From a virus, in the IMG/VR virus record IMGVR_UViG_3300026519_000009, positions 12,607-76,606 of that record: a stretch of 64,000 bases of DNA, one strand, 5' to 3'. Shown one piece after another: positions 26,306 to 50,658 of the stretch. Under the pieces are notes generated by a model. It saw nothing but the letters and a program-made list of their open reading frames with translations, searched no databases and was not told the origin of the DNA. Made by a program: the position numbers and the translations under genes. Position 1 is the stretch's first letter; every line of letters starts with the position of its first letter.

Positions 26306-26751
26306 CCAATTTGCCGGAATACCACTTCCAAATTCAGCTTGGTGAATTTGGAAGTGGATGGATAGGCACCATTAGGACGATCTTGCACTTGTATATATTG
26401 CTTTAATATTTCAATTGGGGCAATAATTAAGTGAATTTAGTTCTTGAATTGATATTTAACTATGGTACACTGTTTATATGAAAAGAGCAATCATTCCCGA
26501 CAAAATAAAGCCATGAAGACTTTAAAAATTCGCGTCAATGACATCAAGCACACGGTTGCCAACAGTATTGAACCAAAGGGGGGGGTTGCGGTTGCCAACA
26601 GTCAATCGGGTGTTGATGGACACAAAACATAAATGATCAACAAAAATAGTAAGTGAAAACGAATTAGTGAAAACACCGAAGACATAATGAGCGACCATTG
26701 TGCGAATCCACGTTCAAGCGCAGATCGCTGATTTGGTGGTGGTCGCTTCAA
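26306..26751 (+). mobile_element. Internally deleted IS200/IS605-type element with tnpB fragments
   Basis: Full left end (hairpin then GGATGGATAGG), ATGAAGACTTTAAAAATTCGCGTC (MKTLKIRV, TnpB-like start), segments matching 47029-47078 and 47408-47448, and right end ...GGTGGTGGTCGCTTCAA. Confidence 0.85.
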
Positions 26752-27326
26752 TAGTTAACAATTCCTGCGTGATTTAGTGCTTTAACGAGTGATAGTAGGT
26801 GCTTACATACCCCAGGAACTTGTTTTGGATTAACCGGTCCCCTATTTGAACCTTGAACTTTTTGGTATGGTTTGGGTGCTCTTCCTATTAGGCTTTTATC
26901 CTTAGCATTGAAATAACTAAATCGGTAATAGAAATCTAAACAATTACATCTAACCCGGCATGTATGTGCCGTTAAATGTATTGCATTCATATTGTATTCT
27001 TCACCATCTTTTGCGGTGAACGTCACGTTGTCCGGTAAATTTTCGTTTGAAAATTCAACGTTATTGAATATAATTGAAGTGTTATAATTGGTACCATCGC
27101 TACTTGCGAGACCTATCACGTTTAAATTTTTGGTGCCTATAAATGGCAATAATTCCAATTTAACTATTCTAACCGGGTCGATTGCATTTTGGCGCTTTGC
27201 AGATACCGGGATAAAATTCAGCACATTTTGTTCTAAATCCGAAAATGTTGATTGTTCACATAAAACAAATTTATCAAGTTGATTGTGTATTCGTTGGCCA
27301 CGTATAAGGTAATGATCATTTTTCAT
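26748..27326 (-). CDS. SWIM-type zinc-finger protein
   Basis: CNCLDFYYRF...CKHL; start at ATG 27326, 5 nt after GATAAATA. Confidence 0.75.
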   Translation of the reverse strand: MKNDHYLIRGQRIHNQLDKFVLCEQSTFSDLEQNVLNFIPVSAKRQNAIDPVRIVKLELLPFIGTKNLNVIGLASSDGTNYNTSIIFNNVEFSNENLPDNVTFTAKDGEEYNMNAIHLTAHTCRVRCNCLDFYYRFSYFNAKDKSLIGRAPKPYQKVQGSNRGPVNPKQVPGVCKHLLSLVKALNHAGIVNY

Positions 27327-27338
27327 AGTGGTATTTAT

Positions 27339-27487
27339 CCAAGTTGTCATTAAAGCGGTTGCCAACGGTCGCCAACTGTGCAATCACTTTTCAATTTTCG
27401 GTGAAATTATTTTAAATTTTTAAAAATTAGTGGAACTTTTTTGAATATACAGCGTCTTTACTATTTTAACAACGTGTGTACGTTCAA
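27339..27487 (+). mobile_element. Degenerate IS605-type mini element interrupted by an IS607-like MITE
   Basis: TTTAT|CCAAGTTG at 27334-27346 and GTTCAA at 27482-27487 flank the nested unit. Confidence 0.5.
27357..27474 (+). mobile_element. 118-bp MITE of the IS607-like element
   Basis: Starts GGTTGCCAAC like the left end at 18766-18778; ends TTACTATTTTAACAACG, 17/17 identical to the reverse complement of 17758-17774. Confidence 0.75.
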
Positions 27488-27488
27488 A

Positions 27489-29087
27489 TTAAATAAATAA
27501 TAATTTCCCAATAGTCCGACCTTCTACCGCAGCGTTAAGTGTGTCAGTTATTTGAAAACTAATATCATTAGAATTAATTACAGTGGGATTTAACACCCTT
27601 GCCGTACCATTATACAATACTAATAGTGCAAATCCTGGTTCGGTAGATGCTAAATTATGAGTGATTGTAAAATTCCCTACACCAATATATGTAGTTGTCC
27701 ATCCAATAGGCAAGGTATTATTAGTCATTACCGCCCCTGTTGTATCAACATCAATAAAAAAAGATTCGGAATGTAACGCAGTTGTTGTATCTACATATGA
27801 CTTCGAGGCCGCTTCATCGGGTGCTACTGGTAATAGTGGTACCCCAGTAATGGTTCCACCGCCAGTTATAACAATATCAGAACCATTTGTTATCTGTAGT
27901 TGACCACCGTCTAATGTAAACGTAGCGGCCAAATCCATTGTATCACCACTTCTACTAATTTTTAAGTCAGAATATTGTTTTGTCGCGAATTCCGCATCAA
28001 GCACAGGTGTTATTCCTTGTACTGAACCTGTAAATGTTGCAGCATTCCCCGTGATATTTCCTGTAAAAATAGGATTATTTAAAGGAGCTTTTTCTACGTC
28101 TAACTCATTAATTGCTGCTTGTATATCAATTGCACTTATATTTCCAGCTGGGACATTAGTCAAATCACTTGCGGTATGTGTATGTCCTACGCGCGAAATA
28201 CCTTCTACCGTTAATGTGTTAGTACTGGGTGGTGAACCTGGAACGAGTACCGTAAATTCTAAAGTAGTATCGGATACTACAAATGGACCGGGTGTCGCGG
28301 CAACAAAGTTAGCACTATTTAATACACCATCACCTGAACTTACACCACCGGTTAATACAGAAAAATCAACATATGCCTTTGATGCAACCTCATCCGCTAA
28401 TGTAGGGAGGGCGGGTATGCCTGTGATTATACCACCAGAAATAACTAAATTTCCAGCAATAACACCTCCCGATAAATTTAATTTATTATTAAGTTGTAAC
28501 TGTACATTGCTTGTAATTCCTTCTAATTGATTAACATCACTTGCTGTGAGTGTAGTCGGTGAACCAGTCAGTGATAAATTGTCTAAGAACGTGTTTTGTA
28601 TGGGTGATAAGTGTAATGCATTATCTGAAATATGGGTATCCACATATTGTTTTGGTACTGCACCCAAATTCGTAGTTGGATTACCAAACAATAATAGTTC
28701 ACCTTGCATTGGTGTTGAACCTGTGGCGGTTATTATTCCATCCCACCCTGGACCACCAGCGGTATCATCGGGTGAATTATTCCGTATAAACAAGGAACTA
28801 CTAGGCGGACTACCGTTATTAGTAGAATACCATAATTGTCCTTCTATAGAATTAACCGGGCGTGTTGGACTAGCAAAGTTTTCTATCATATATACAAAAT
28901 TTTGCGCAACCGCTTCCCCAAAATTAGATAAGCCACGGCCATATAACTTCAATGTGGTTCTTGCAGTAACAGCATTTTCTATGAGCGTGGGATTGGATGG
29001 ACTAATCGGACCATTTGTTGTAAATGGAAAAATAGAAAATCCTGGTTTAGTCGTATCCGAAAATAATAAGTTATATGTTAGAGCCAC
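27489..29087 (-). CDS. Tail fibre-like protein
   Basis: N-terminal LKLYGRG...GE..AQNFVYMIENFAS...GQLWY attachment domain and repeated A[AV][ST]K.YVD fibre motifs. Confidence 0.8.
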   Translation of the reverse strand: MALTYNLLFSDTTKPGFSIFPFTTNGPISPSNPTLIENAVTARTTLKLYGRGLSNFGEAVAQNFVYMIENFASPTRPVNSIEGQLWYSTNNGSPPSSSLFIRNNSPDDTAGGPGWDGIITATGSTPMQGELLLFGNPTTNLGAVPKQYVDTHISDNALHLSPIQNTFLDNLSLTGSPTTLTASDVNQLEGITSNVQLQLNNKLNLSGGVIAGNLVISGGIITGIPALPTLADEVASKAYVDFSVLTGGVSSGDGVLNSANFVAATPGPFVVSDTTLEFTVLVPGSPPSTNTLTVEGISRVGHTHTASDLTNVPAGNISAIDIQAAINELDVEKAPLNNPIFTGNITGNAATFTGSVQGITPVLDAEFATKQYSDLKISRSGDTMDLAATFTLDGGQLQITNGSDIVITGGGTITGVPLLPVAPDEAASKSYVDTTTALHSESFFIDVDTTGAVMTNNTLPIGWTTTYIGVGNFTITHNLASTEPGFALLVLYNGTARVLNPTVINSNDISFQITDTLNAAVEGRTIGKLLFI

Positions 29088-29114: not shown

Positions 29115-31079
29115 TTACCCAAATACCCGCAATTCTTTAAACCTTCGTCGAATCAAGGTACCACCAGAACTAAATAAAATCGCTCGCGCGTTCGTTCCAT
29201 CCGATATAATAGTGTACATACGCTGTGAATGTGGGAGGTTTCCGGTCCCCGTGGCAGGGGGTGTGGATGAGACATTATTACCATCAAAAATTTTAGTCCA
29301 GGCACTATCTATAAATACTTCAAATATAACTTGACCATTTATCAAATCTTCGTTTACTACCTGATACATTCCAGCTGGAAATACGTATGTAGAGCCAGGG
29401 ACATTTGCTAATGTTCGTAAAGTATATACATTAGTAAAACTAAAACCACCAGCAATAAGATTATCAACATATTGCTTATTTGCAGCATCCGAATTATTAG
29501 TCGGTGTGTCCACGTTAACAATTTTAGCGTTTGTCATATCTAATTCACTATCAAATTGAACTGGCCCTGTAATTCTGGCATCGCCAACCACATGTAACTT
29601 ATTTCCTGGTGCCGGTGTTCCTATTCCAACGTCACCAGTCGTGGTTATTCTAAACTGTTCGGTTGCTACACCAGCACTTCCGGTTTCTATTACAAAGTCC
29701 CCATAATTTGCACGTAGTCGTAGTATATCGCCAAAATCATTGTGCTGTATAAGACTACGAGGTAGAACATTTCCAGCTTGATGGAATTGTATTGCAACAT
29801 TTCCATTCGAGTTATTGTTCTCTAGGCGCAATGCTTCACCATTGCCGCCCGCTAAGGTTAGGACGTGTAACTTTGCGGCTGGTGCTGTCACCCCCATTCC
29901 AATATCACCACTAGACGTTATAACTAGATTTTTATTACCATTTGTTGAAAAACTAAGTGTTTGTCCAAGGTCAAATTCAATTGAATTATCACCACCTGCG
30001 GAATTACCAAAGTTTATTAATCCGGTGGAAGGGTCGGTTAACGCATTAGTAGCCCGTATTGCGCCATTAATAGTAACTTCACCACTAGGCGCTATAAGTA
30101 GTTTTTCATTACCATTTGTTGAAAAACTAAGTGTTTGTCCAAGGTCAAATTCAATTGAATTATCACCACCTGCGGAATTACCAAAGTTTATTAATCCGGT
30201 GGAAGGGTCGGTTAACGCATTAGTAGCCCGTATTGCGCCATTAATAGTAACTTCACCGGTGGTCTCAAAAATATTTAGACGTATTTGATTATTTTTAACT
30301 ATATCGAAACTATTACTATTATTAATTATATAATCACTGGCACCTAACCCGAAATTAATTCGACCATCCCCACTATTGTTAACTGTCAGGTCATCATTGA
30401 TTGTAGTTGCACCATTCAATTCAGTATCACCAACTACTTCAAATGCTGTGGATGGTGATGGTTGATTAATTCCAACTGACCCATTACTTAACGCGGTTAG
30501 TACACTCCCCCCTGCACTTTGTAAATCAATAATAGCACCTGCCCCCTGTTGATTTACAATAAGCAATGTTCCCGGTTCATTCGCTTGCATAATATCAGCA
30601 ACATCGCTGCGTAAAAATTGAGTACTATCAAGGCCGTCCAACAACGTTGCATCACCACCAGTCGGAATTGACCATATATTACCTAATGAAAAGGTATAAG
30701 TAACATTTGCAGAAGTATTGAACCATTGTTGTCCAATAACAGGATTAGTTATTCCATTACCAAGACCAAGATCATTTTCATCTTTTGGAAGAACCGGATC
30801 GGTCACAGGGTCATAATCCATTAACATCGTAGCTGGATTATAATCACCGAAAACCTTTGCTGGGCAAGCATAATTCTCCAACAATCTGAATATATTTTGA
30901 TTTACGCCCTGTCCCCAACTTACAGTACCAAATCCATATAATGATAAGTCGGAATCCCGCGCAATCCCGCCTGCACCATTTAATTCACCAGAACCAATAG
31001 TAAATGATGATGAAGTACGATTTGCAACTGATTCTGAATCATCATATGCTGTATGTTTTATTAAATATGTTTCAGCCAT
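29115..31079 (-). CDS. Tail fibre-like protein
   Basis: LSLYGFG...QNIFRLLENYA...GQQWF head domain, DATLLDGLDSTQFLRSD, G.VGIG...P...LHV repeats and DAANKQYVD. Confidence 0.82.
   Translation of the reverse strand: MAETYLIKHTAYDDSESVANRTSSSFTIGSGELNGAGGIARDSDLSLYGFGTVSWGQGVNQNIFRLLENYACPAKVFGDYNPATMLMDYDPVTDPVLPKDENDLGLGNGITNPVIGQQWFNTSANVTYTFSLGNIWSIPTGGDATLLDGLDSTQFLRSDVADIMQANEPGTLLIVNQQGAGAIIDLQSAGGSVLTALSNGSVGINQPSPSTAFEVVGDTELNGATTINDDLTVNNSGDGRINFGLGASDYIINNSNSFDIVKNNQIRLNIFETTGEVTINGAIRATNALTDPSTGLINFGNSAGGDNSIEFDLGQTLSFSTNGNEKLLIAPSGEVTINGAIRATNALTDPSTGLINFGNSAGGDNSIEFDLGQTLSFSTNGNKNLVITSSGDIGMGVTAPAAKLHVLTLAGGNGEALRLENNNSNGNVAIQFHQAGNVLPRSLIQHNDFGDILRLRANYGDFVIETGSAGVATEQFRITTTGDVGIGTPAPGNKLHVVGDARITGPVQFDSELDMTNAKIVNVDTPTNNSDAANKQYVDNLIAGGFSFTNVYTLRTLANVPGSTYVFPAGMYQVVNEDLINGQVIFEVFIDSAWTKIFDGNNVSSTPPATGTGNLPHSQRMYTIISDGTNARAILFSSGGTLIRRRFKELRVFG
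29934..30257. repeat. Intragenic tandem duplication: 150 identical bp, 174-bp period
   Basis: 29934-30083 equals 30108-30257 (58-aa period). Confidence 0.92.
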
Positions 31080-31115
31080 GGTATCCTCGTGTTTATTGAT
31101 TATATTATTATTTAT

Positions 31116-31259
31116 CCAAGTTGCTGAAATACCATTTCCAAATCAACAAGCTGAATTTGGAAATGGATGGATAAGAAGAATTTTGGTTGGATTCCAATTG
31201 AAGCTACCATCACCAAATCGTCTCGCTCATTTGGTGATGGTCGCCAACAGTAGCTTCAA
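31116..31259 (+). mobile_element. Two-hairpin mini element (left end plus right end)
   Basis: TATTTAT|CCAAGTTGCTGAAATACCATTTCCAAAT...ATTTGGAAATGGATGGATAAG, then CCATCACCAAAT...ATTTGGTGATGGTCGC(CAACAGTA)GCTTCAA. Confidence 0.85.
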
Positions 31260-31283
31260 GTATTAATCATAACAATTAGCACG

Positions 31284-31952
31284 TTAATGTATTGTTGTTC
31301 CTTTTTTAACGAAAGGAACTGTCGTTATTGATTTATTATCAATATTTTCTTGTTCGGTCAATTTACTTGGGGGTGTATCATATAAGTTTGATAATATTTC
31401 ACGTATTTTACTGTCTTTCGAGGATGATTTACTATTCTCTTTAACCGGTTCTTTTACCTTCTTAACCGGTTCTTTTACCTTCTTAACCGGTTCTTTTACC
31501 TTCTTAACCGGTTCTTTTACCTTCTTAGCCGGTTCTTTTACCTTCTTAATCGGTTCCTTAATTGATTCGTTATCCGTCTTAATAGGTTCTTTAGCTTGGT
31601 TAATAGATTTATTGACATTGGATGGATTCAATACCAACTTCGGACGCGAAACATAAACATCATGCGTTCCTACCACATTAATATTTCCGTTCATTGGACA
31701 AAAATGGTATCCATCTACAATAATATCAATATGGAAGTTATATGTGGTAGTTTCCAGCATTTCTAATGGCGGAATTATTACTGTCCATGAACGCTTGCTA
31801 TTCTCGACTCGTTTACATTCAAATTTAAGGTCCATTTCGGAGGCTTCTATAACAAAATAAACACACATATCTTTCGTTTCGATATTAGTTATGTCTACTT
31901 CAAAATCCAAAATATTTTCTTTTACGTTTGAAATTGATATTAAATTATCCAT
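31284..31952 (-). CDS. Hypothetical protein with KKVKEPV repeats
   Basis: 222-aa ORF with a basic low-complexity repeat. Confidence 0.7.
   Translation of the reverse strand: MDNLISISNVKENILDFEVDITNIETKDMCVYFVIEASEMDLKFECKRVENSKRSWTVIIPPLEMLETTTYNFHIDIIVDGYHFCPMNGNINVVGTHDVYVSRPKLVLNPSNVNKSINQAKEPIKTDNESIKEPIKKVKEPAKKVKEPVKKVKEPVKKVKEPVKKVKEPVKENSKSSSKDSKIREILSNLYDTPPSKLTEQENIDNKSITTVPFVKKGTTIH
31441..31560. repeat. 21-bp tandem repeat (~5.5 copies)
   Basis: TTAACCGGTTCTTTTACCTTC units. Confidence 0.92.
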
Positions 31953-31956
31953 AATA

Positions 31957-32409
31957 TTAGTTATCCGTTCGTTTTCTTGTTAAATTTTTAATCAAAATGC
32001 GCATGTTATGCAACTTCTTTCGTATCGTGGATACCCCAATTTTTACCCTAGATTTCGATATATTGGCAAAATTCAAAATAGTGACTATCGTATCCGCTTT
32101 CTCTATTGGCACCATATATATTTTTTCCATATGGAAGTTACCTAGTTCAACACGAATTATTACTTCTTTTTTATAGCGTGGAAATCGTGTAGGATCATAA
32201 AAGTCTTCAGCAACCGGTTTGAAAAAATCCTGTATATTGTTTACTTGATTCTGAGCACCCATATTTTCCGGGTATGGTCCACCACCGCCCGTTGGTTGAA
32301 CCACCACACCAAGGCAATATAGTGAAAAATGCGTAGTAATTAACCCTTCACATGCCCCACCACATAGTCCCTTTGTTATTATTCGCTGACCACCAACACC
32401 AATACTCAT
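31957..32409 (-). CDS. Hypothetical protein (start MSIGVGG)
   Basis: ATG at 32409 follows the stop of the upstream gene. Confidence 0.6.
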   Translation of the reverse strand: MSIGVGGQRIITKGLCGGACEGLITTHFSLYCLGVVVQPTGGGGPYPENMGAQNQVNNIQDFFKPVAEDFYDPTRFPRYKKEVIIRVELGNFHMEKIYMVPIEKADTIVTILNFANISKSRVKIGVSTIRKKLHNMRILIKNLTRKRTDN

Positions 32410-32416
32410 ATTATGC

Positions 32417-33079
32417 CTATGGGCATACCGCCTTGCCATCCGTACCACCAGCAACAGGTCTACGTTCACACACTTCAGACGTACTAGGCGTGCCACTCTG
32501 ATCCAATAAGTTAAATACCCGCAATGGTGTAACGCAATCATCATCGTATACAGTTAATGTGTTTGCGGTAGAATCAACACGGGTGCGGTTCGTTTCATAT
32601 TTACACAATAATTCTACAATATCGGTTACCGCCTGAATGTCCAAAAATAATTGTGTAGTGTTCGCATTAATCATGCTTAATGTAGCACCAGTGGAGCCGG
32701 TTATTTGATGGTCAGGGAGCAATACTTCGTCAAGAACATTTGGTTCAATTTTTGCGGTTTGATACCGGTCTATATTCGATACAGAGGGACCAGCATCCGT
32801 CCGTATAACGTAATTACTACTTTGGTCATACCCGAGTAATGGGGTAAAGTCAAAGGTGTAGAAACCATCTTGTGATGGTGGTGAACCAGTACCGATAATT
32901 TCAAGCATAACACCATCCGTAGCTTGTCCTGTGCCATTGGGGGCACCAACAATCAGCGTTTGAGTCGATCCATTTACTTCCCATATACGAACCCGAGGAT
33001 ATCCGGGGGTGGTTGTTCCTATGTTTATTGCGGGAACGCCTGCATCTGAAAAGAAGCTATTAATTTCCGTTTGTGCCAT
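32417..33079 (-). CDS. Putative virion structural protein
   Basis: 220 aa; AATAAATA motif and AGGA RBS upstream. Confidence 0.55.
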   Translation of the reverse strand: MAQTEINSFFSDAGVPAINIGTTTPGYPRVRIWEVNGSTQTLIVGAPNGTGQATDGVMLEIIGTGSPPSQDGFYTFDFTPLLGYDQSSNYVIRTDAGPSVSNIDRYQTAKIEPNVLDEVLLPDHQITGSTGATLSMINANTTQLFLDIQAVTDIVELLCKYETNRTRVDSTANTLTVYDDDCVTPLRVFNLLDQSGTPSTSEVCERRPVAGGTDGKAVCP

Positions 33080-33117
33080 ATGTACAACATCCTATTAACT
33101 ATTATCTTATTATTTAT

Positions 33118-33160
33118 TCAAGTTACCGAAATACTACTACTGGTGGTTGGTCGTTTCGAA
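33118..33160 (+). mobile_element. Degenerate mini element (loop deleted)
   Basis: TATTTAT|TCAAGTTACCGAAATACTACTACTGGTGGTTGGTCGTTTCGAA. Confidence 0.65.
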
Positions 33161-33243
33161 CCGTTAATTTGACATTATATATCAATATCGCTTCAATCTT
33201 TTTTTTTATGTATGATAAATATACTAAACTAGGGAATATAATT

Positions 33244-33486
33244 ATGCATGATTTTTCACTAATTAAACAGTTAAATACCGTTGACGTTAAGCAACCGTGT
33301 GGATTGGCGGAAGGAATTGTGTACCAGCAATATGAGCTAAAGATTGAAGGTGGTTTAGTGACTGTCAATATCCCATTACGCGAAAGCGAACATTTTGAAA
33401 CAGCATTGTCTAAACACGACAGCGAAATAACACGTCAATCATTAAAATTATTATTAAGAGAATTTCGCGGAATCCGCGAACGCTAA
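33244..33486 (+). CDS. Hypothetical protein
   Basis: GATAAATA at 33214 and AGGGA RBS before ATG 33244. Confidence 0.6.
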   Translation: MHDFSLIKQLNTVDVKQPCGLAEGIVYQQYELKIEGGLVTVNIPLRESEHFETALSKHDSEITRQSLKLLLREFRGIRER

Positions 33487-33501
33487 TACTGGATATTAAA
33501 T

Positions 33502-33996
33502 ATGGGATTTGTTCTAACACAACCAACAACAGGTAACATAGGCGGCGGGGGAATACCCGGACTAACGGTATCCATGATAAATGGGCAAAACGTTCTAACA
33601 TTGGAAGATACTACACGTGGTAATAAAATATTATCTGTTTCGGATAATCCAGTCGTTTTTTCCGAAAATGTATTATCAAACCTTGACTGGTTGGCCGTTG
33701 GTGGGGCAAGGGATGCGGATAGTGGTTTTATCACAACATTAGATGCAACTATTGTTGGCATTTCGGCACATTGTGAAAATACTGGCGGAAATTCTAAAAA
33801 TATTCATCTTTTTGTTGATGGTGCCGACCTTGGCTCACTTGGAACACTAGGTGGCGGTACAAATGCAGTGATTAATGATACTATTTTGGATATAGATATT
33901 AATCAGGGACAACGTGTAAGATTACGCGCAGTGGACGGTATACCGGGAAATATCCAAGATACCGTAATTAAACTAACATTAAAGTGGCGCGGCTAA
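33502..33996 (+). CDS. Putative structural protein
   Basis: 164 aa, G/D/T-rich, beta-type composition. Confidence 0.55.
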   Translation: MGFVLTQPTTGNIGGGGIPGLTVSMINGQNVLTLEDTTRGNKILSVSDNPVVFSENVLSNLDWLAVGGARDADSGFITTLDATIVGISAHCENTGGNSKNIHLFVDGADLGSLGTLGGGTNAVINDTILDIDINQGQRVRLRAVDGIPGNIQDTVIKLTLKWRG

Positions 33997-34232
33997 ACTT
34001 GAGTTATAATGACTTTTAATTCGTTTAATGTTTTTTCTTCACCATTAACTACTATAATCGGAACGGTTCTTGGTGTACGGTCTATAATATCCGTTATTTC
34101 TTCTATTGAAATATTGGTACCAATCGTCAAATAATTATACGGGATTCCCTTATCTGTAAGCATAGCTTCTAATTTACGACAATTGCCACACACTTTTGTA
34201 CCAAATATATCAATTTTCATCATTTTCACCAT
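33993..34232 (-). CDS. Glutaredoxin
   Basis: CGNC active site and RTVP.I..NG motif. Confidence 0.9.
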   Translation of the reverse strand: MVKMMKIDIFGTKVCGNCRKLEAMLTDKGIPYNYLTIGTNISIEEITDIIDRTPRTVPIIVVNGEEKTLNELKVIITQV

Positions 34233-34248
34233 TAATTAATTTTGTTAT

Positions 34249-34306
34249 CCAATTTGCTGAATCCACTTCCAATTTCAGCTTACTGATTTGGAAGTGATCG
34301 CTTCAA
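34249..34306 (+). mobile_element. Mini hairpin element overlapping the 3' end of ORF 34275-34724
   Basis: TTAT|CCAATTTGCTGAATCCACTTCCAATTTCAGCTTACTGATTTGGAAGTGATCGCTTCAA. Confidence 0.85.
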
Positions 34307-34724
34307 ATTTAAGATAAATTGTTTGAATTGTTGTATTAAACCGTAGACAGAAAATAAAAGTACTAATAACTGTCGCATTCATTACACTCCAGCCTACGCT
34401 GAAAATCGCCCATGTGTTTTCATTTGTCACAACAGGTAATATCAAAAGCGTTATAATATTAAAAAATATAGCGCAGGCGGAAAACCGAAGTAATGAACGA
34501 TATCCGGTAATAACGGAGTTAATAAAGTTATTTTCTGCCCGCCATAATAATATTTCTGATTCGTTCGTCACACCGGTAGTCTTGTCCATGGCAGCGTGAA
34601 TTAGCAACCGTGTTCGTAATGCACACTTAATAGTGGTAATATATGAACGACATATGACTACACACATGACACACAGCAACAATATTAATAATATAATCCC
34701 ATATTCATCCATTACATTCTCCAA
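34275..34724 (-). CDS. Membrane protein
   Basis: Three hydrophobic segments; GGAG RBS. Confidence 0.65.
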   Translation of the reverse strand: MENVMDEYGIILLILLLCVMCVVICRSYITTIKCALRTRLLIHAAMDKTTGVTNESEILLWRAENNFINSVITGYRSLLRFSACAIFFNIITLLILPVVTNENTWAIFSVGWSVMNATVISTFIFCLRFNTTIQTIYLKFEAITSKSVS

Positions 34725-41044: not shown

Positions 41045-41047
41045 TTT

Positions 41048-42410: not shown

Positions 42411-42977
42411 CTAACTATTGGTTGTCAAGTGCGCATAGTTACTAATCGTGGTGACACGGAGCGCATAGTAATATGGTATCCCATATAATATTATTTCAGC
42501 ACCGCTGGATATTCCTTCGGATAGCTGTTCGGTTGAATAATTAAACCGCAATAAATCTTCAAATATCATCGTTCCGCTTGTTTCACCAAGCTTATTGAAT
42601 ATTGATTCAAATATTGGTTCGTAACAGTTGGTTGAATCGTTAACCGCCTTGCTGTACATATATCGAAACCCATTGGGTGGAAACACATAAAACAACTCAT
42701 TTTCATTTTCATAAATATCTTCCACCCCACCAATGGCAAATACTGCTCGTTCTCTCAGGTTATACAGTTGTTCCTTAAATACTGAATTAAAAACCTTACC
42801 GAATTTCGTCGTATTATTGTGCTTACGGACTTTGATTTTTTGAAAGTCATCGTGTGTATTGGGTAAGTACTTGAACAATGGCATACCATTTGCTTCCAAT
42901 AAAAACTGGGAACAATTGGTTTTGATTCGACGAATGTTGCTAATTTCGTTTATTTGTAATAATGGTTGTACGCGCAT
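42411..42977 (-). CDS. Hypothetical phage protein
   Basis: R...FA, Y.FPPNGF.Y.YS and EI motifs; follows GATAAATA. Confidence 0.6.
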   Translation of the reverse strand: MRVQPLLQINEISNIRRIKTNCSQFLLEANGMPLFKYLPNTHDDFQKIKVRKHNNTTKFGKVFNSVFKEQLYNLRERAVFAIGGVEDIYENENELFYVFPPNGFRYMYSKAVNDSTNCYEPIFESIFNKLGETSGTMIFEDLLRFNYSTEQLSEGISSGAEIILYGIPYYYALRVTTISNYAHLTTNS

Positions 42978-42990
42978 AAAACCTATTTAT

Positions 42991-43057
42991 CCAAGTTGCA
43001 GCAATACCACTTCCGATTTCAGCTTGCCGATTTGGAAATGGTATTGCTACAATTTGG
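42991..43057. mobile_element. Mini element, two left ends head-to-head
   Basis: TATTTAT|CCAAGTTGCAGCAATACCACTTCC...GGAAATGGTATTGCTACAATTTGG. Confidence 0.82.
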
Positions 43058-43098
43058 GTAACTAACAATAGTCAATCAAACACTAATCCAGACAACGA

Positions 43099-43560
43099 TC
43101 ACTTCCAACGCAACTCACCACCAATATTTTTGGGCATCCCATCTAAAGATTTAAGATGATTATTCATACACAAGAACGTTCCTCCCACTGAGGTCGGCGC
43201 ACCGTCTAATGTTATTAATTCATTATCATAGCAAAAAAAACTACCATTAACCTCATATGGTGAATATTCTAAGCTGGATAATAAGTTAAATGAACAATTA
43301 AAACCACCTTCTACTTCGTGCGGGCTACCTTTTAATGATGTCAATTTGTTACCTGAGCAGTTAAAATCACCATACACCGTTCGAAATTGCACTGGGATTT
43401 CGGTCAAATAACGATGACAAATGTTTACGTTACCATTTACGATAACACTACCGTTATCGCAAATAATATAGTTTTTTATTTTCATATTTTCAAGCCAGCG
43501 CATAATATCGCACACTGGCTTGAAATCCGTTCCGGAGGTATCAGGCATGTTCATCATCAT
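43099..43560 (-). CDS. Short LRR-like repeat protein (paralogue of 46252-46752)
   Basis: 22-aa repeats G.F.CS.N.L.SL.G.P..V. Confidence 0.8.
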   Translation of the reverse strand: MMMNMPDTSGTDFKPVCDIMRWLENMKIKNYIICDNGSVIVNGNVNICHRYLTEIPVQFRTVYGDFNCSGNKLTSLKGSPHEVEGGFNCSFNLLSSLEYSPYEVNGSFFCYDNELITLDGAPTSVGGTFLCMNNHLKSLDGMPKNIGGELRWK

Positions 43561-44542
43561 GCTCTTTCATTCCCCCAAAGTGTCTGGATTCTGTCACAGA
43601 TATATTATGCTTTTTGAAATATTTTCGAATATCAGCATGGTGTTTGGTAACAATGGTACTACCATGTTTACCCTTTACCTGCGTTGCCTTTCCGTTAACC
43701 AGCTCAATTGTTGCGATTGGGACCATTAGTTTATTCCGAGCACTGTAAATTTTTGCCTTGCCCTTTTCAATATCAGAACCATACGAAGCAACGCAATGTT
43801 TCATTAATGTACCTTCGACCTTAGCACTCTCCCGTGTCAGTAATTTTACAACTGTTATTGTTTCAAAATCATCATCTTCAACCGTAAAGTCTTTGCCTTC
43901 AACCAAGTTATCTATCATTTCTTGTGCCAGCGCAGCGTCAACTATTTCGGATTGTTGCACCGTGTATTCGTGCCATGCTATTGACCGCTTTAGCGCTTCC
44001 GGGAAATGTAGTTTTGATATATCACGAACTTGAAAGGCTAATGGACAAATAACACTTTCCTCATATCCCGCCTGTGCGTTTGCTAATAAAAAATCATGCA
44101 CGTTACTGATGACATTTGTTAGTTTTAATATTCTGAACATTCGTCCTGCTGAAAACACAACAACATCATCAATCGCTTCTTGTGCAAATTCAGGAAATAA
44201 TGCCAAAGCGGTTTGCATTGAAATGTTGTTGCTTTTTGTTGAAACTAATGTGGTCAGATATTCCTTTAATGGGACAAAAAACATTTCTTGAAATTTTTCA
44301 GGGTTCATCATGTCATTCGTGATATCAATTGCACCACGTCTGACCCAATTATAAAAATTGTGTTTAAACCAATATCGTACATCATCAGTTGTTCGAGAAT
44401 TACAAATTTTATTGTCAATAAAGCGTTCTATAATATGTTGACACGTATTGATATGGTCGATTTCAATGCCATCGTTATTTGCTATTGTGATTTTTACATT
44501 ACCAGAATTGACAATATTCGGACATTTTTTCATAGCTTTCAT
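43541..44542 (-). CDS. PcfJ-like domain protein
   Basis: C-terminal EG..MKHCVASY...IYS.R...ATIE...Q.KG. Confidence 0.75.
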   Translation of the reverse strand: MKAMKKCPNIVNSGNVKITIANNDGIEIDHINTCQHIIERFIDNKICNSRTTDDVRYWFKHNFYNWVRRGAIDITNDMMNPEKFQEMFFVPLKEYLTTLVSTKSNNISMQTALALFPEFAQEAIDDVVVFSAGRMFRILKLTNVISNVHDFLLANAQAGYEESVICPLAFQVRDISKLHFPEALKRSIAWHEYTVQQSEIVDAALAQEMIDNLVEGKDFTVEDDDFETITVVKLLTRESAKVEGTLMKHCVASYGSDIEKGKAKIYSARNKLMVPIATIELVNGKATQVKGKHGSTIVTKHHADIRKYFKKHNISVTESRHFGGMKEHDDEHA

Positions 44543-44571
44543 AGATACATTCCATAAGTAGTTGAATTAAA

Positions 44572-44913
44572 TTGAAGTGACCACCATCAAATCAGCGAGC
44601 TGTGTTTGGTGGTGGATTCGCACAACGGTCGCCCATTGTGTTTTCTGCATTTCCACAGACCCCTGCTAGTAGCGCTTGGTTTCCCAAGCTGAGAATGTTC
44701 GTTGCTACATTTACATTGCAATCATGCATTGTTTCACACCCGGAGCATGTACATTCTCTTATTCCAAGACCTGAACTACCTTACTGATAATAACATAGTT
44801 AAATGTCAAGTCAAGAATTAAATTCACTTAATCATTGTGTGTTTAATATGTTGCCTGTCCAACCACCATCAAATCAGCACGATGATTTGATGGTGGTTGG
44901 ACAGGCAACTTGG
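44572..44913 (-). mobile_element. IS200/IS605-type element reduced to left end, promoter, tnpB 3' tail and right end
   Basis: Minus-strand 44572-44780 aligns by eye with 47280-47482; left end TATTTAT|CCAAGTTGCCTGTCCAACCACCATCAAAT. Confidence 0.88.
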
Positions 44914-45274
44914 ATAAATATTCAATAACAGCCTCTTCGTCTATTGTTAGTGATCCACTTGCATTGGCGCGGCGCAACGTAGTTTCAAAGGTCATTATCA
45001 TTTCTTTTGAGTTTATATATTCTAATATGATTTCACACGCGGCGCGTGTGAAATCATATTGTGAATTGTCCTCATCATGTTTGTAGTCAATTGCCAACGC
45101 CGCCATAAACATGATATTTTGTACCACTGGCACCGTGGTTGGCATTAAAGTGAACCATCCAGGATCATTTTTAATAAAATTGGTGTATAAAATTTTATCA
45201 TCATCCGTTAATGGCACGCAGCTTGACATTTGTTTAACAAATCGTTCTTCATATGTTTTTTGCAATGCAGTCAT
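44843..45274 (-). CDS. Hypothetical protein whose C-terminus is encoded by the element left end
   Basis: Last ~23 codons (SKLPVQPPSNH...) lie inside the element. Confidence 0.6.
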   Translation of the reverse strand: MTALQKTYEERFVKQMSSCVPLTDDDKILYTNFIKNDPGWFTLMPTTVPVVQNIMFMAALAIDYKHDEDNSQYDFTRAACEIILEYINSKEMIMTFETTLRRANASGSLTIDEEAVIEYLSKLPVQPPSNHRADLMVVGQATY

Positions 45275-45393
45275 ATTATATCCGATAGTTGCATTTTGAA
45301 TATGAATATATTGTAAACTATTACAATATATTATTCAATGGTTTTGGACTATATATTTCACTTGTTCTACTAGATTCCAATAAAATCCATTAT

Positions 45394-45453
45394 CCAAGTT
45401 GCCGAAATACCACTACCAAATCAGCAAGCTGAATTTGGAAATGGTCGCTTCAA
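45394..45453 (+). mobile_element. Mini hairpin element (near consensus)
   Basis: TTAT|CCAAGTTGCCGAAATACCACTACCAAATCAGCAAGCTGAATTTGGAAATGGTCGCTTCAA. Confidence 0.9.
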
Positions 45454-45463
45454 TATGTCAATA

Positions 45464-46240
45464 TTAATGTTTTGGTTGCCAACGTTCTAAATACTGCCCG
45501 ATATCGAATAACACCGAATTTACATTGTGAAATAACCAACTGTTGTTATTGGGTTGGCGTGACCCATGTTGGTCTAATGCACCGAACACGGCTGTGCTTT
45601 GTTCAGCATCCCATATATACCATTGCACTATTTCTAGGTTCCGTTCGGTTATTATTTTATGTAGTTCAGTCTGACCGGTTTTATGAATAAAGACCCCTAT
45701 TATATTGGGCGAACTAGATTTCATTCTATATAAAATGAATATGGGCGTGATTTCCTTAGCCGCGTTGATTTTAGATTGCACGGTTTTGCCCAAAAAACCG
45801 GGCCAACCACCATTTTTCGTAAAATCACGATAGCCACGAATTGGATTTCTTGGTATCCCTTCGGGTATGTTACCCTTGTCAAATTCTATTTTGAATTCTT
45901 CGATTGTTTTTAGGCCAAGTTTATGTATTAAGGCCACCGCATCCCAATATGGCATTCGCTTGGCGCGTGTAACCGCGTGTGGCGCGTCCGCTGAGAATAT
46001 GTTGTTGGTATCTAAAAACGTATTCCAGTTATCCCATTCTATATAAACCTCACTTGGATTTGCAGGCATTCCACCCGGTTTATAGTTACGTATCCATGTC
46101 CGGTATTGGCGGTATGATTTAATGCCTACCCGTCTTGCATATTGCGCAGCAAGGTCATATGGCATCCACCTCCAGTCTTTTGGTTTGCTATTTTCCAATG
46201 CTTTGGGAAGATATGTGCGTGATTTGCGTTTTTTAACCAT
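45464..46240 (-). CDS. Protein with two phage integrase-repeat-like units
   Basis: Two M-P-Y..A......G.K[ST]..[EQ][YF].....P..P...Y....W..FL units. Confidence 0.65.
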   Translation of the reverse strand: MVKKRKSRTYLPKALENSKPKDWRWMPYDLAAQYARRVGIKSYRQYRTWIRNYKPGGMPANPSEVYIEWDNWNTFLDTNNIFSADAPHAVTRAKRMPYWDAVALIHKLGLKTIEEFKIEFDKGNIPEGIPRNPIRGYRDFTKNGGWPGFLGKTVQSKINAAKEITPIFILYRMKSSSPNIIGVFIHKTGQTELHKIITERNLEIVQWYIWDAEQSTAVFGALDQHGSRQPNNNSWLFHNVNSVLFDIGQYLERWQPKH

Positions 46241-46251
46241 ATAATTACCAA

Positions 46252-46752
46252 CTAATTGTTGTGTGAATTAATGAACAGTCCGCCAATAATTGTGGTTGCG
46301 CGATGTGATTGTGGTAGTATATTAAATGAACAGTCAAAATCACCATCAATTTCTTGTGGTGATCCTGTCAACGATCTTAGGTTATTAGCATATACATGAA
46401 AAAACTTTCCGACTTCGGATGGACCGCCAACTAATGAAGATATCATATTCATAGAACAATCAAAGCCACCAGCAACTTCCTTCGGCGCACCTAATAATGA
46501 GTTCAGTTCGTTAAATGAACAATCAAAATCGCCACCGACTTCACGCGGTGAACCTTTTAGTGTGGTCAAGCTATTATTTGAGCAATTAAAATTACCATAA
46601 ACAATTCGGAACTGTACTGGTATTTCGACTAATCCTTTAAAATCTAAATAAACATCACCTTTCACCGTTACCGTACTTGTATCATTAATAGTATAATTTA
46701 TAATACCCATTTCATCAAGCCATCTTATAATTTCTTTTTTATTAGTCATCAT
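46252..46752 (-). CDS. Short LRR-like repeat protein
   Basis: Same repeats and EIPVQFR.VYG.FNCS motif as 43099-43560. Confidence 0.8.
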   Translation of the reverse strand: MMTNKKEIIRWLDEMGIINYTINDTSTVTVKGDVYLDFKGLVEIPVQFRIVYGNFNCSNNSLTTLKGSPREVGGDFDCSFNELNSLLGAPKEVAGGFDCSMNMISSLVGGPSEVGKFFHVYANNLRSLTGSPQEIDGDFDCSFNILPQSHRATTIIGGLFINSHNN

Positions 46753-46764
46753 ATTGATATTTAT

Positions 46765-47482
46765 CCAAGTTGCCGAAATACCACTTCCAAATTCACGTGG
46801 TCGGTGGTATCTTTCGGTTCAAGTACTTGTTGACAAACAAGTATCAACTGGCACCGGACATATAGGAATTGACTTGGGGTTAAAGACCATTGCTACGTGT
46901 TCAAATGGCGAAATATTAGAACGTAAGGAATATTATCGTAAATCCGAAAGCAAGTTGGGCATTGCCCAACTTGCAAAAAAGAAACGCCAAGTAAAAACAA
47001 TTCATGCGAAAATCAAGAACCAACGGATGGACACAAATCATAAATGGTCAACCAAGATAGTAAAAGAAAAACGAATTAATAGCGATTGGTAATGTTAGTG
47101 CGTCTAAATTAGCAAAGACTAAGATGGCTAAATCCGTATTAGACGCAGGTTGGTATCAACTAAAGAACATGCTCGATTATAAATCGAAAGCGATGCGATG
47201 CATGTTTGTTGAAGTCAACGAATCGTACACCACCCAGACCTGTTCGTCGTGTCAGGAAATAACTGAAACGAGTCCGAAAGGTAGGACAGGTCTTGGAATA
47301 AGGGAATGGACGTGTTCCGGGTGTGGCACATTGCATGATCGTCATATCAATGCAGCAACGAACATTCTCCGCTTGGGAAGTCAAGCGCTCGATGGAGGAG
47401 TCTGTGGAAACACAGAAGACACAATGGGTGACCATTATGCGAATCCACTTCCAAATCAAAGATTTGGAAGTGGTCGCTTCAA
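46765..47482 (+). mobile_element. IS200/IS605-family element remnant (longest copy)
   Basis: TTTAT|CCAAGTTGCCGAAATACCACTTCCAAATTC left end, then tnpB remnant, then right end GCGAATCCACTTCCAAATCAAAGATTTGGAAGTGGTCGCTTCAA. Confidence 0.92.
46795..47400 (+). pseudogene. tnpB: tnpB pseudogene (5' truncated, frameshifted)
   Basis: RGRWY...GIDLGLK (RuvC-I); frameshift near 47070; then AKSVLDAGW...VNESYTTQTCSSC...WTCSGCGTLHDRHINAA (RuvC-III Asp changed to His). Confidence 0.9.
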
Positions 47483-47506
47483 CAGTAATAATAAAGGAAA
47501 CGGCTA

Positions 47507-47719
47507 ATGCCTACATATCAATATAAATGTTCAAATAAAAAGTGTGACATTCATAATGTTATTATAGAAGTAAAGCAAAAAATGACTGAAGAACCATTAC
47601 AAATATGCCCCGACTGTTCTGAACCTACCTTAACAAAAAGGATATCAGGCGGTGGTGGATTCCGCATAGGTGGCCAAGGCGTTCATAAACCAACCGCACA
47701 CTGGGGTGATCTAAGCTAA
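47507..47719 (+). CDS. FmdB-family zinc-ribbon protein
   Basis: MPTYQYKC...C...CPDC...KRIS...F..GG.G. Confidence 0.88.
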   Translation: MPTYQYKCSNKKCDIHNVIIEVKQKMTEEPLQICPDCSEPTLTKRISGGGGFRIGGQGVHKPTAHWGDLS

Positions 47720-47985
47720 TGTCAACCACCACGAAAGAGATTGAAACAATAATTAATAAAAAAATATCATTACTTTCGTGGAATTATTTATTGAACTTCT
47801 TTGAAGAATTCAAGTCAGAGCTTTCAATCAATGAAATTGAAATACTAAATGCACATTCAGAAAAATGCAGGCATTTCTTAAATACTAAATATGAAAAAAC
47901 GTATGGTTGGAAACATATTTCAAAAAAAGATATGAGAGTTGATATATTATATTATTTAAAAGAAAGAAAGAAAAAACGATTGTAA
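47719..47985 (+). CDS. Hypothetical protein
   Basis: TAATG coupling to the upstream gene. Confidence 0.6.
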   Translation: MSTTTKEIETIINKKISLLSWNYLLNFFEEFKSELSINEIEILNAHSEKCRHFLNTKYEKTYGWKHISKKDMRVDILYYLKERKKKRL

Positions 47986-47989
47986 AAGT

Positions 47990-48545
47990 TTAACATTCGT
48001 GTAATATCCATAATACAGAAGTGATGATCAAGCCCCCAATTTGGGCACTATTGTTGCACATCACCAACAATTCGATGTACGTTGCCCAATTTATCGAAAG
48101 ACGTTGAGGTTAGTCCATTGTTAGGTAGATTTTTATATTTACCAGAAGGTAGAAAACAAACATGCTGTAGTGTTCCAGTTTTCAAACGCTATGGTGGTAG
48201 TTCCCCACTAGGCCCGCGAAACCCCCCGTGACCGGCCTGGATAGATATATATCTATCCGAACGGAGGGGGGCCAGCTCTCATGGTTTTAAATGGTTAAAA
48301 AAAATAATTTAATAATGAATGTTTATTAGTTCTTTCTGCCTTGCGAGGCTTTATCCGCAAGGCAGAAGAATAATTGATATTACATTTTCGCGCCTTGGTG
48401 CGAAGATTATAGATAATCCATTATTACGTTATTATATTATTATGGAAATTGAAAATGTAGGCAATAATTGCAAAAAATGTGGTTTTGTTGTTGTCATGTC
48501 CCATTCATAACATTGGCACCAGACAAGTGCTTTCACGCAAGCGCT
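47990..48545. other. Long structured non-coding region (possible ncRNA or origin)
   Basis: No credible ORF. GC-rich stems at 48190-48275, perfect palindrome 48239-48258, hairpin 48334-48367. Confidence 0.4.
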
Positions 48546-48547
48546 TC

Positions 48548-48562
48548 TTGAACGCAACTTGG
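48548..48562 (-). mobile_element. Hairpin-less 15-bp remnant of the mini element
   Basis: Minus strand TTTAT|CCAAGTTGCGTTCAA. Confidence 0.65.
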
Positions 48563-48654
48563 ATAAAAAATACAAGTCGTCAATAGTGACGAATAAATAT
48601 ATTCTTAAAAAATAATCCATTGATGATTTATAAAAAACATGATACAATCATAGG

Positions 48655-50253
48655 ATGAATAATAAATCAAAAATATTTGAATCATGGCCCACGCCAGAAT
48701 TCACACCTCGTACAAATCAAATAATTGCATTGGAATGGATTGAAAAACAAACCGCAAAATATTTGATTTTGGAAGCACCGGTTGGTAGTGGAAAATCACA
48801 TACAGCACTTACATTTGCAACCTCTATATCAACACATCTAAAACACTCATTTGTATTAACACCACAGATAATTTTACAACAGCAATATGAAGTTGACTTT
48901 AAAAAAAATGGTAGTGCATTTTTAGCATCATTGCGTGGTAAATCAAATTATAAGTGTATTAATAAAAAAACATCATGTAATGTTGGTTCTTTAGTCAAAC
49001 CAAAATGTGCTGTCTGCCCCTATATTAAAGCAAAACAACGGGCATTATACTCCAAAAATACGGTTCTTAATTACAAGTTGGCACTAACTACCTTCACGTA
49101 TACAGATACGTTTGCAAAACGAAAGCTATTAATAATGGACGAAGCACATACCCTTGAGCGACATTTAGTTGATTTTGATTCCGTTGATATCAAATCTTTT
49201 ATATGCGAGAAATACAATATTAAATTTAAAGTTAATACTAATATTAAATCAGCAAAAGAATGGGTAACAAAAGAATATTTACCTAACATACAAGACGCAT
49301 TAAATACACTTGAAGAAGATAGTGAATATTTATATGAAAAAACAGGAGCAGAAATAACAAAAAAGGAATTAAAATTATTATCAGAAATTGATGAATTAAG
49401 CGCACATGTGAATGATGTTTTGGAATTGTCAATACGAAATGTTAAGTATTTAGAAAAACACTTCGTACTAGTACACGATAAAACGATGATTCAATTTAAA
49501 CGTATTACAGGCGCGTATTCATTTAAAAAAATATTTGAACCACAAGCTGAACGTTTTTTATTCATGTCCTCAACCATATTAAATAAAAACCAATTCTGTG
49601 CAGACTTAGGTATTGATGAAAAAGATACCGCGTTTTTATCACTTGAAAGTGACTTCCCTGTTGAAAACAGGCCAATATATTATATGCCCATTTTAAAAAT
49701 GAATGCTGCTTGGAACAAACCAGAACAAGCAAATGGTAGAAAACAAATGATTACCAGAATATGCGAACTGCTTGATATTCATAAAACCGAGTCGGGAATA
49801 ATCCACACAGCAAATTATCAAATAGCAATATGGTTAGTACAGGAACTTTCGAAGTTAAAGTCACACGACATTTATCATCATAATCCAAAAACCAAGCATA
49901 ATCGAAATACCACAATTGATATGTTTATAGAGTCAACCGTACCATCTATTCTTATAAGCCCATCATGTACCGAAGGACTTGACCTAAAAGATGATTTGTC
50001 ACGGTTCGCAATGATTGTTAAGACACCGTTTGGATACTTAGGTGACCAGTGGATAAAGAAACGGTTAGATATGTCGGCTGAATGGTACAGGCGCAGAGCT
50101 ATGACCGATATCATACAAGCTGGTGGACGAATTGTGAGAAGTTCAAATGATAGTGGCACAGTATATATTCTGGACGGTAGCTTTGGATACCTATATTCGC
50201 AGTCATCTTCCATGATACCAAAATGGTGGAAAGATTCATTAGTGTTTATGTAG
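48655..50253 (+). CDS. DinG/YoaA-like SF2 helicase
   Basis: APVGSGKS, Cys cluster, DEAH, EGLDL and QAGGRIVRS..D.G..YILD. Confidence 0.92.
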   Translation: MNNKSKIFESWPTPEFTPRTNQIIALEWIEKQTAKYLILEAPVGSGKSHTALTFATSISTHLKHSFVLTPQIILQQQYEVDFKKNGSAFLASLRGKSNYKCINKKTSCNVGSLVKPKCAVCPYIKAKQRALYSKNTVLNYKLALTTFTYTDTFAKRKLLIMDEAHTLERHLVDFDSVDIKSFICEKYNIKFKVNTNIKSAKEWVTKEYLPNIQDALNTLEEDSEYLYEKTGAEITKKELKLLSEIDELSAHVNDVLELSIRNVKYLEKHFVLVHDKTMIQFKRITGAYSFKKIFEPQAERFLFMSSTILNKNQFCADLGIDEKDTAFLSLESDFPVENRPIYYMPILKMNAAWNKPEQANGRKQMITRICELLDIHKTESGIIHTANYQIAIWLVQELSKLKSHDIYHHNPKTKHNRNTTIDMFIESTVPSILISPSCTEGLDLKDDLSRFAMIVKTPFGYLGDQWIKKRLDMSAEWYRRRAMTDIIQAGGRIVRSSNDSGTVYILDGSFGYLYSQSSSMIPKWWKDSLVFM

Positions 50254-50255
50254 TG

Positions 50256-50277
50256 TTGAATAATTCAGGCAACTTGG
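50256..50277 (-). mobile_element. Hairpin-less 22-bp remnant of the mini element
   Basis: Minus strand TTTAT|CCAAGTTGCCTGAATTATTCAA. Confidence 0.7.
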
Positions 50278-50292
50278 ATAAAGGAAAAAAAA

Positions 50293-50598
50293 ATGCGAAG
50301 CATATTAAAATTAATGTTACAGATTGTCGCGTATGCAGTAATAGTGATGTTAACAGTATATTGGATATCGGCAGAACAACTAAACTACATTCTTATTGAA
50401 ATACCAACATTAATATTTGATACGTTGGTTAAGTTAATGCCGACTAATGGCCACGAATCAACAACAGTTGACGTTGCGTTAATGGGGATATACACATTCC
50501 TTGCACTAACCTTACCCGTTCTTTGGTGGTTATTTGTATTTTTTACACCATTTATGCTATTACGTAATGTTTCCAACAAATATATTAATGGTTGTTGA
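50293..50598 (+). CDS. Membrane protein
   Basis: Two hydrophobic segments; AAGGA RBS. Confidence 0.65.
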   Translation: MRSILKLMLQIVAYAVIVMLTVYWISAEQLNYILIEIPTLIFDTLVKLMPTNGHESTTVDVALMGIYTFLALTLPVLWWLFVFFTPFMLLRNVSNKYINGC

Positions 50599-50658
50599 AG
50601 CGCCACACACCACCAAATCAGCAAGTTGAATTTGGTGGTGTGGTAGTGGTAACTTCAA
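50595..50658. mobile_element. Mini element with TTCAA-type ends on both sides
   Basis: TTGAAGCGCCACACACCACCAAATCAGCAAGTTGAATTTGGTGGTGTGGTAGTGGTAACTTCAA. Confidence 0.8.

Follow-up and report, generated by a model that had tools for sequence, protein, structure and literature searches.

Relics of an IS608-like insertion sequence as apparent donors of stop codons to convergent genes in a jumbo-phage genome fragment

The sequence considered here, a stretch of 64,000 nucleotides (nt) referred to as the window, comprises bases 12607-76606 of the 76.6 kb linear virus record IMGVR_UViG_3300026519_000009 and contains a family of hairpin-bearing repeats whose right ends coincide with the stop codons of five open reading frames (ORFs). 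It is probable that these stop codons were swapped: relics of an insertion sequence (IS) resembling IS608 would have landed on the TAA stops of genes read antisense to the element, and the TCAA at the end of the element would have re-supplied a TGA. Sequence comparisons support this reading wherever they allow it to be checked. The five ORFs (lengths in amino acids, aa), with the position of each stop, and the elements concerned are the following.

26748-27326, minus strand: conserved phage protein of 192 aa, ending in GIVNY (TAT TGA); stop TCA at 26748-50, inside the right end 26741-26751
34801-35232, minus strand: gene for a NUDIX hydrolase of 143 aa, ending in NIVN (AAT TGA); stop TCA at 34801-03, inside the right end 34794-34804
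37715-37918, minus strand: putative gene, a 67-aa ORF that starts with GTG, ending in AAA TGA by way of a right end that reads TCAT instead of TCAA; stop TCA at 37715-17
50293-50598, plus strand: membrane-like protein of 101 aa, ending in YINGC (TGT TGA); stop TGA at 50596-98, inside TTGAAGCG
50655-52286, minus strand: HNH/DUF7487/Mom-like endonuclease-type protein of 543 aa, ending in HWTN (ACG AAT TGA); stop TCA at 50655-57
26306-26751, plus strand: degraded IS copy of ~450 bp, with the left end (L) and a hairpin at 26306-26358, internal remnants, and the right end at 26700-26751
34744-34804, plus strand: single-hairpin, terminal-only element of 61 nt with target TTAT at 34740-34743 and a decayed stem
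37657-37718, plus strand: element copy with a diverged, disrupted left end and the right end TCAT
50595-50658, unstranded: palindromic R'-hairpin-R unit with one strong hairpin and no left end

The coincidence of these five stops with the element terminus, as claimed by the original prediction, was confirmed in each case, the TGA being the reverse complement of the TCA contained in the right end ...CGCTTCAA. A sixth stop-coincident right end is located outside the window at L010:1856, where a 129-aa ORF terminates in an element with a TCAC end. Equally borne out was the claim that target and end are in the same register. Read antisense, TTAT is ATAA and TCAA is TTGA, both with a stop in their last three bases, and insertion 3' of TTAT puts TTGA exactly over the former ATAA. 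A right-end TGA that shares the frame of a convergent gene therefore implies that the target TAA was already in this frame before the insertion, and would thus have been a stop; the argument assumes no more than that the target was TTAT and that one precise insertion took place. The example given for the element at 34744 is reproduced by joining its flanks, which yields ...GTT AAA TAA in place of the present ...GTT AAT TGA. The accompanying claim that only the third base of the last codon is altered applies to this site (AAA to AAT); at 26748, the native TAA was apparently split and one residue gained.

The site at 26748 is covered by relatives with known DNA sequence. Joining the flanks of the 26306-26751 copy gives ...GTT AAC TAA TAA ATA... 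as compared to the present ...AAC TAT TGA, so the reconstructed protein ends in GIVN before a tandem TAA TAA. All of the 15 protein homologues (59-70% identity) end at the corresponding Asn, one residue before the Tyr found in the window, and the 16 element-free orthologues from IMG/VR for which DNA is available all end at the same column, 12 of them with TAA, four with TAG, and none with TGA. Because the reconstructed TAA falls exactly on the end column of the homologues, the insertion appears to have split the native stop (TA/A to TAT, coding for Tyr), and the TGA of the element would halt translation one codon later. As judged from these sequences, the swap at 26748 is not silent and the protein has probably been extended by one residue.

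The convergent pair at 50595-50658 represents a special arrangement, in which TTGAAGCG on the plus strand and its mirror CTTCAA flank a single hairpin and TGA is supplied to both genes. For the gene at 50655-52286, the comparison comes from the sister fragment IMGVR_UViG_3300026519_000016 (G001), which has repeats, not genes, in common with the window. Three paralogues encoded on G001 end at the same column as the window protein, and the PHROG profile ends within three residues of its C-terminus. Two of the paralogues are element-free and end in VWTK (ACT AAA TAA) and HWTA (TAA), respectively; the step from AAA TAA in the former to AAT TGA in the window is the predicted change. The third paralogue ends in KWSI with ATT TGA, followed by the right-end-like sequence AACGACCACC (G001:C1:40816-40835, equivalent to L009:816-835), which resembles a decayed right end whose hairpin has been lost and would point to an older such event. 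On the other side of the unit, two homologues of ORF 50293-50598 (73-77% identity) end on the same Cys and are one residue shorter internally, consistent with the stop-swap model; a scan of viral contigs with the alignment of this ORF gave no match. The same region (50258-50598) differs in a second run (X2), which contains a strain ~4% diverged from the window: in this strain, the left-end-like motif at 50263 is preceded by a full hairpin that the window lacks, and GAAGCG, the right-end motif, comes after position 50565, so that the final 11 codons of the ORF are missing or replaced. These codons are kept in more distant homologues.

The Nudix gene at 34801-35232 has homologues ending within 0-6 residues of the C-terminus found in the window, and its reconstructed end would be NIVK (AAA TAA). 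Nine of the ten more distant orthologues with DNA available end in TAA, no more than a few residues away from the end in the window, and a metagenome scan with the Nudix alignment gave at most 47% identity among the matches listed. As far as these sequences go, the site is consistent with the model without proving it. The original prediction further implied that orthologues should not extend well beyond the present stops and that element-free relatives should not end in TGA. Wherever this was checkable (26748, 50655, the Nudix gene, and 50293 for the former; 26748, the Nudix gene, and the two element-free 50655 paralogues for the latter), the orthologues do not run well past the present stops, and the relatives end in TAA or TAG rather than TGA.

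At two of the stop-coincident right ends the last base is changed, namely to TCAT at 37715-37718 and to TCAC at L010:1856-1859, turning the predicted AAT (Asn) before the TGA into AAA and AAG (both Lys), respectively. By such changes, a C-terminal Lys may have been restored in compensation while the TCAA cleavage site was spoiled, although the numbers are too small to decide this. The X2 strain reads canonical ...GAATTTAT/CCAAG at the 37718 site, and has an uninterrupted TTAT/CCAAG at the left boundary of this copy (37647-37656).

The frequency of these coincidences is far above that of a random TGA in the contig, which ends an ORF of at least 67 aa in 2.2% of cases. Right ends serve as the stop of such an ORF in six of ~20 cases in the contig (P ~4e-6) and in five of 17 in the window (P ~3e-5). 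TGA stops as such are not rare in this phage, being used by 18 of 65 ORFs of at least 100 aa. Where a right end touches or runs into a convergent ORF, it is in frame in five or six cases and out of frame in one, ending at 34306 (P 0.007-0.018 against an expectation of one third). Other neighbouring genes retain their own stops 3-24 nt away from an element (41048 with TAG, 45464 with TAA, and 25181, 14678, and 31284). The out-of-frame case is the following.

34249-34306, plus strand: out-of-register contrast case, inside the 3' end of ORF 34275-34724, which continues across the right end into the hairpin, ~5 native codons being exchanged for ~10 element-encoded ones

As delimited by repeat finding and motif searches, the repeats are units of ~60-65 nt consisting of three parts: a left module CCAAGTTGCCGGAATA placed after TTAT, a hairpin CCACTTCCAAAT...ATTTGGAAGTGG, and a right module TCGCTTCAA. 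Right ends with a linked hairpin number ~20 in the 76.6 kb contig, including 17 in the window. TTAT stands before the great majority of left ends, the right flanks bear no relation to TTAT, and there is no target duplication. The left (CCAAGTTGCC...) and right (...CGCTTCAA) ends are not mutual inverted repeats. Folded as single-stranded DNA, the full-length ends yield -19.9 kcal/mol for the right (z -7.5) and -19.2 kcal/mol for the left one (z -6.0). Relative to the hairpin foot, TTAT is placed 16 nt to the 5' side and the end of TCAA 9 nt to the 3' side, and GAAT is found immediately 5' of the right-end hairpin (in terms of sequence position only). The same ends also enclose OrfB_IS605 and TNB domains as recognized by Pfam, and the copy used as reference is the following.

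46765-47482, plus strand: IS remnant with TTAT at 46761-64, TnpB fragments, and a right end consisting of M module, hairpin, and TCGCTTCAA at 47420-47482
46754-47092 and 47124-47507: TnpB fragments of this remnant, matching OrfB_IS605 and Cas12f1-like TNB in Pfam, respectively

The TNB matches at 47124-47507 and at L010:3153-3701, a TNB-bearing copy of 93% identity, have E values of 1e-21 to 1e-22. The TnpB ORFs run into the M-hairpin right end that closes in TCAA, the copies in the window being fragmented. The complete unit is present on G001, where TTAT is followed by the left end, an intact Y1_Tnp gene for 159 aa on the opposite strand (E 1.5e-41), and the start of tnpB. The top PDB match of this TnpA is the TnpA of ISHp608 (E 7e-22); the alignment includes the HUH motif and the catalytic Tyr. 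The degraded copy at 26306-26751, which lies behind a TTAT at 26302-26305 and has a right end of M module, hairpin, and TCGCTTCAA, shows 94% identity with the left end of this intact IS. The 60-65-nt copies without ORF consist of L, hairpin, and TCGCTTCAA and agree in sequence with both ends of the IS copies. By these matches, the repeats should be regarded as relics of an IS608-like insertion sequence of the IS200/IS605 family with tnpA and tnpB genes, and most copies as terminal-only derivatives of ~60 nt with fused left-end and right-end hairpins. Because of this identity and of the geometry, the short units can be explained by deletion between the two similar hairpins. Mirror combinations of the modules are also present (L-H-L' and R'-H-R, with H denoting the hairpin), and these palindromes would represent two opposed insertions collapsed across near-palindromic hairpins. 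The boundary of the element is supported by a copy that is polymorphic between strains.

45394-45453, plus strand: element copy absent from X2

In X2, agreement with the window extends to the final T of the TTAT (45393), after which the contig diverges (joint 45393 to 45461); this supports the element boundary and a recent gain or loss. The neighbouring gene at 45464-46240 retains its own TAA 10 nt away.

The original prediction also pointed out that the swap places a hairpin directly after the gene. This is physically the case, the hairpin beginning six bases after the stop, but nothing indicates that the hairpins act as terminators or have been co-opted. No T run follows any of the element hairpins. 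A scan of 31000-50999 called none of them terminator-like, although it did call the terminators of the phage itself at 37585-37632 and 39243-39276. The RNA folds at 26748, 34801, and 37715 barely beat those of shuffled sequences (z -1.4 to -1.7), and the hairpin has decayed at two of the five stop-swap sites. Only the fold of 50595-50658 is strong (-34 and -31 kcal/mol, z ~-5).

On the gene strand, the flank of the left module usually reads ATAAATA, 8-12 nt before a start codon. The motif (G)ATAAATA precedes start codons by ~8-35 nt whether or not an element is adjacent, e.g., upstream of 17798-18697, 53026-54357, 55266-55826, and 42067-42369. It looks like the -10 box of a T4-type late promoter and holds the TTAT target of the element on the other strand. 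ATAAATA lies outside the element boundary, as defined by the left end of the IS and by the X2 polymorphism, and the promoter is not part of the repeated unit. A terminator-promoter cassette, as suggested by this flank near start codons, was rejected in view of the TnpB and TnpA matches.

The source genome belongs to a jumbo-phage lineage from a hydrothermal-vent metagenome. The DNA is present at full length in one public run, which is such a metagenome. CheckV estimates the completeness of the record at 24%; the window has a G+C content of 37%, and ~92% of the contig is coding. The gene content is phage-type, with tail-fibre and virion proteins, a DnaB-like helicase, and HNH/Mom-like proteins; the closest GenBank relative of a second helicase is encoded by the jumbo Xanthomonas phage XacN1 (43% identity). 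No match was found by megablast of 20 kb against GenBank phages, and no close relative in a metagenome scan with the DnaB query. The DnaB relatives that were found (L001-L004, 40-52% identity) contain neither the element nor orthologues of the five stop-swap genes. TnpA gives no indication of the host: its top bacterial relatives share no more than 54% identity and are spread over many phyla. Many of the joints in X1 were cross-matches between repeat copies and were excluded, and stretches without contig cover were left uninterpreted.

Several observations weigh against the swap of stop codons or reduce the number of sites that speak for it. A true empty site was recovered for none of the five genes, and X2 shares both the 34744-34804 insertion and the right end at 37718. 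There is no tnpA in the window or its contig. The 50595-50658 unit is devoid of a left end and offers no TTAT to inspect, so that its origin must be assumed, while the element at 37657-37718 combines the TCAT end with a disrupted left end, and the ORF that it terminates has no homologue among 1.84 billion representatives. The two Nudix homologues of highest identity (79%) exceed the window protein by 2 aa. Moreover, a fairer null than random TGA codons is given by the TTAT sites at which an insertion is tolerated: with 161 intergenic TTAT sites and 16-17 stops of the form ATAA, ~9% of the elements are expected at stops, and the excess over this value is modest (P ~0.01).

The longer Nudix homologues would be compatible with chance truncation, i.e., with insertions into the 3' coding parts of longer genes whose C-termini were shortened by a TGA that was accidentally in frame, and the copy at 34249-34306 did indeed land in the 3' end of a gene and rewrote its C-terminus. 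However, the C-termini of the homologues coincide with the present or reconstructed ends of ORFs 26748, 50655, and 50293, which largely refutes truncation there, and both the ratio of in-frame to out-of-frame right ends and the in-frame TAA implied by a TTAT target with an in-frame right-end TGA argue against it, making this explanation very improbable. Still slightly less credible is a regulatory cassette of the phage itself, composed of stem-loop and promoter as in T4-type phages and spread by recombination, with TTGAAGCG as a conserved gene-end motif. The frequent ATAAATA flank shortly before start codons and the mirror combinations of the modules would fit such a cassette, but the same ends bound TnpB fragments in the window and the intact tnpA/tnpB unit on G001, ATAAATA also precedes element-free genes and lies beyond the element boundary, and the element hairpins lack T runs, are decayed in several copies, and belong to a motif set with 0 occurrences in 410 kb of related-phage loci.

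An adaptive design, in which the TTAT/TCAA pair was selected for patching stops and the hairpins were co-opted as 3' stabilisers or terminators, deserves somewhat more credit and yet appears unlikely. It could draw on the excess of stop-coincident ends, on the strong hairpin between the convergent genes at 50595-50658, and on the fact that IS608 has the same property by virtue of its TTAC/TCAA pair (PMC3201880). On the other hand, the ends of a Scytonema IS (52% TnpA identity) are unrelated, which shows that the property does not extend to the whole family, the decayed hairpins without T runs do not look co-opted, and purifying selection alone would yield the excess in a 92%-coding genome. A broader variant, to be taken as a tentative and rather doubtful proposal, would regard the TTAN/TCAA pair of IS608-type elements as a selected stop-codon patch for the colonisation of nearly all-coding genomes, with later changes of the last base that restore the C-terminal residue and disable right-end cleavage, as with TCAT at 37715 and TCAC at L010:1856.

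The preferred reading, stop swaps by IS608-like relics, can be described as a short series of proposed steps. TnpA would insert the single-stranded element 3' of TTAT, with the element closing in TCAA, and each copy would have arisen by such an insertion at its spot. If the ATAA of the target holds the stop of a convergent gene, its conversion to TTGA would keep an in-frame stop and change at most the preceding third base from A to T. If the preceding codon is itself the true stop, as in the tandem TAA TAA at 26748, it would become a Tyr codon and the protein would gain one residue. Purifying selection would then spare mainly two kinds of TTAT sites, those inside ATAAATA promoter-like motifs and those over TAA stops; the 26748 site combines both kinds (TAA TAAATA). 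The excess at stops would thus reflect purifying selection in a genome that is ~8% non-coding, and not an evolved targeting of stops. The swap is a passive by-product of known transposition chemistry and involves no new mechanism.

If correct, this reading explains how ~20 copies of an IS608-like element are tolerated in a phage genome with a coding fraction of ~92%, since TTAT sites overlapping a TAA are harmless only because the end of the element itself reads TGA. It also reveals an annotation trap, in that both the stop and the last residue of such genes derive from a transposon, and offers a predictor in the simple form of an in-frame TTGA with a hairpin behind it, which may be used for dating insertions and for rebuilding native C-termini.

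Some further features concern individual copies or lie apart from the stop-swap sites. The 10-nt unit CTGTTGGCAA (complement TTGCCAACAG) forms the left boundary of the 37657 copy (37647-37656) and recurs within the right module of unit 31198-31259 (31244-31253). An L-H-L' palindromic unit at 11023-11096 follows a single open frame of 3681 aa (window 1-11026), the start of which lies 19 nt before the window. At 55227-55269, a hairpin-less fusion joins the right-end-like TTGAATCGACCACCACC to the left-end-like AACTTGGATGA, and the TGA stop of ORF 54805-55269 comes from the left-end-like part. The 299-aa ORF 17798-18697 on the minus strand, far from any recognisable IS end, has a partial match to Cas12f1-like TNB (E 1.6e-8; G000:C1:30512-30622) and may be a TnpB-derived gene or remnant. 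Repeats of other kinds are a 174-nt tandem duplication (97% identity) at 29905-30252 inside the tail-fibre-like ORF 29115-31079 and a 21-nt tandem array of 7-8 copies at 31420-31613 inside ORF 31284-31952.

A comparable reduction of a transposon to its termini is known from the PATEs of Haloquadratum walsbyi, which are 52 bp long and derive from IS605-type transposons through repeat-mediated loss of the core between near-terminal palindromes (PMC3119063). Like the phage repeats, they are transposase-free relics of ~50-60 bp that keep the 5' target and 3' terminal oligonucleotides and can vary between strains, but they reside in an archaeal chromosome, have other end sequences, and have not been linked to stop codons (PMC3119063). 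The closest known system is IS608 (ISHp608) from Helicobacter pylori, which shares with the phage element a Y1 HUH TnpA, the layout of tnpA and tnpB, and subterminal hairpins. Cleavage of IS608 takes place 3' of a TTAC located 19 nt ahead of the left hairpin and after a TCAA located 10 nt beyond the right one (PMC3201880). Both elements insert 3' of TTAN, 16-19 nt from the left hairpin, and end in TCAA 9-10 nt after the right one (PMC3201880), and the antisense-stop register (GTAA and TTGA in IS608) holds by arithmetic. The phage element differs in its target, TTAT instead of TTAC, in a distant TnpA (E 7e-22), in its jumbo-phage host, and in occurring mostly as single-hairpin relics of ~60 nt. 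No prior statement of stop-codon replacement by IS200/IS605 ends was found in the literature searched, the coverage of which was incomplete and provides weak evidence of novelty; the stop swap is apparently an unremarked corollary of a known family.

Short single-hairpin repeats just behind genes are also represented by the REP and REPIN sequences, which are related to IS200/IS605 chemistry and are mobilised by the Y1 transposase RAYT. REPs rely on a domesticated, single-copy RAYT and have a conserved 5' motif of the GTAG type, whereas the phage element is an ordinary tnpA/tnpB IS with IS608-like ends. In terms of its consequence for the target gene, the stop swap resembles the integration of prophages into tRNA or tmRNA genes, where the incoming DNA carries a replacement for the displaced piece of the gene and renders the insertion harmless. 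Those integrators require site-specific recombinases and tens of bases of identity, whereas in the phage element three bases at its end, read as a stop, would be sufficient.

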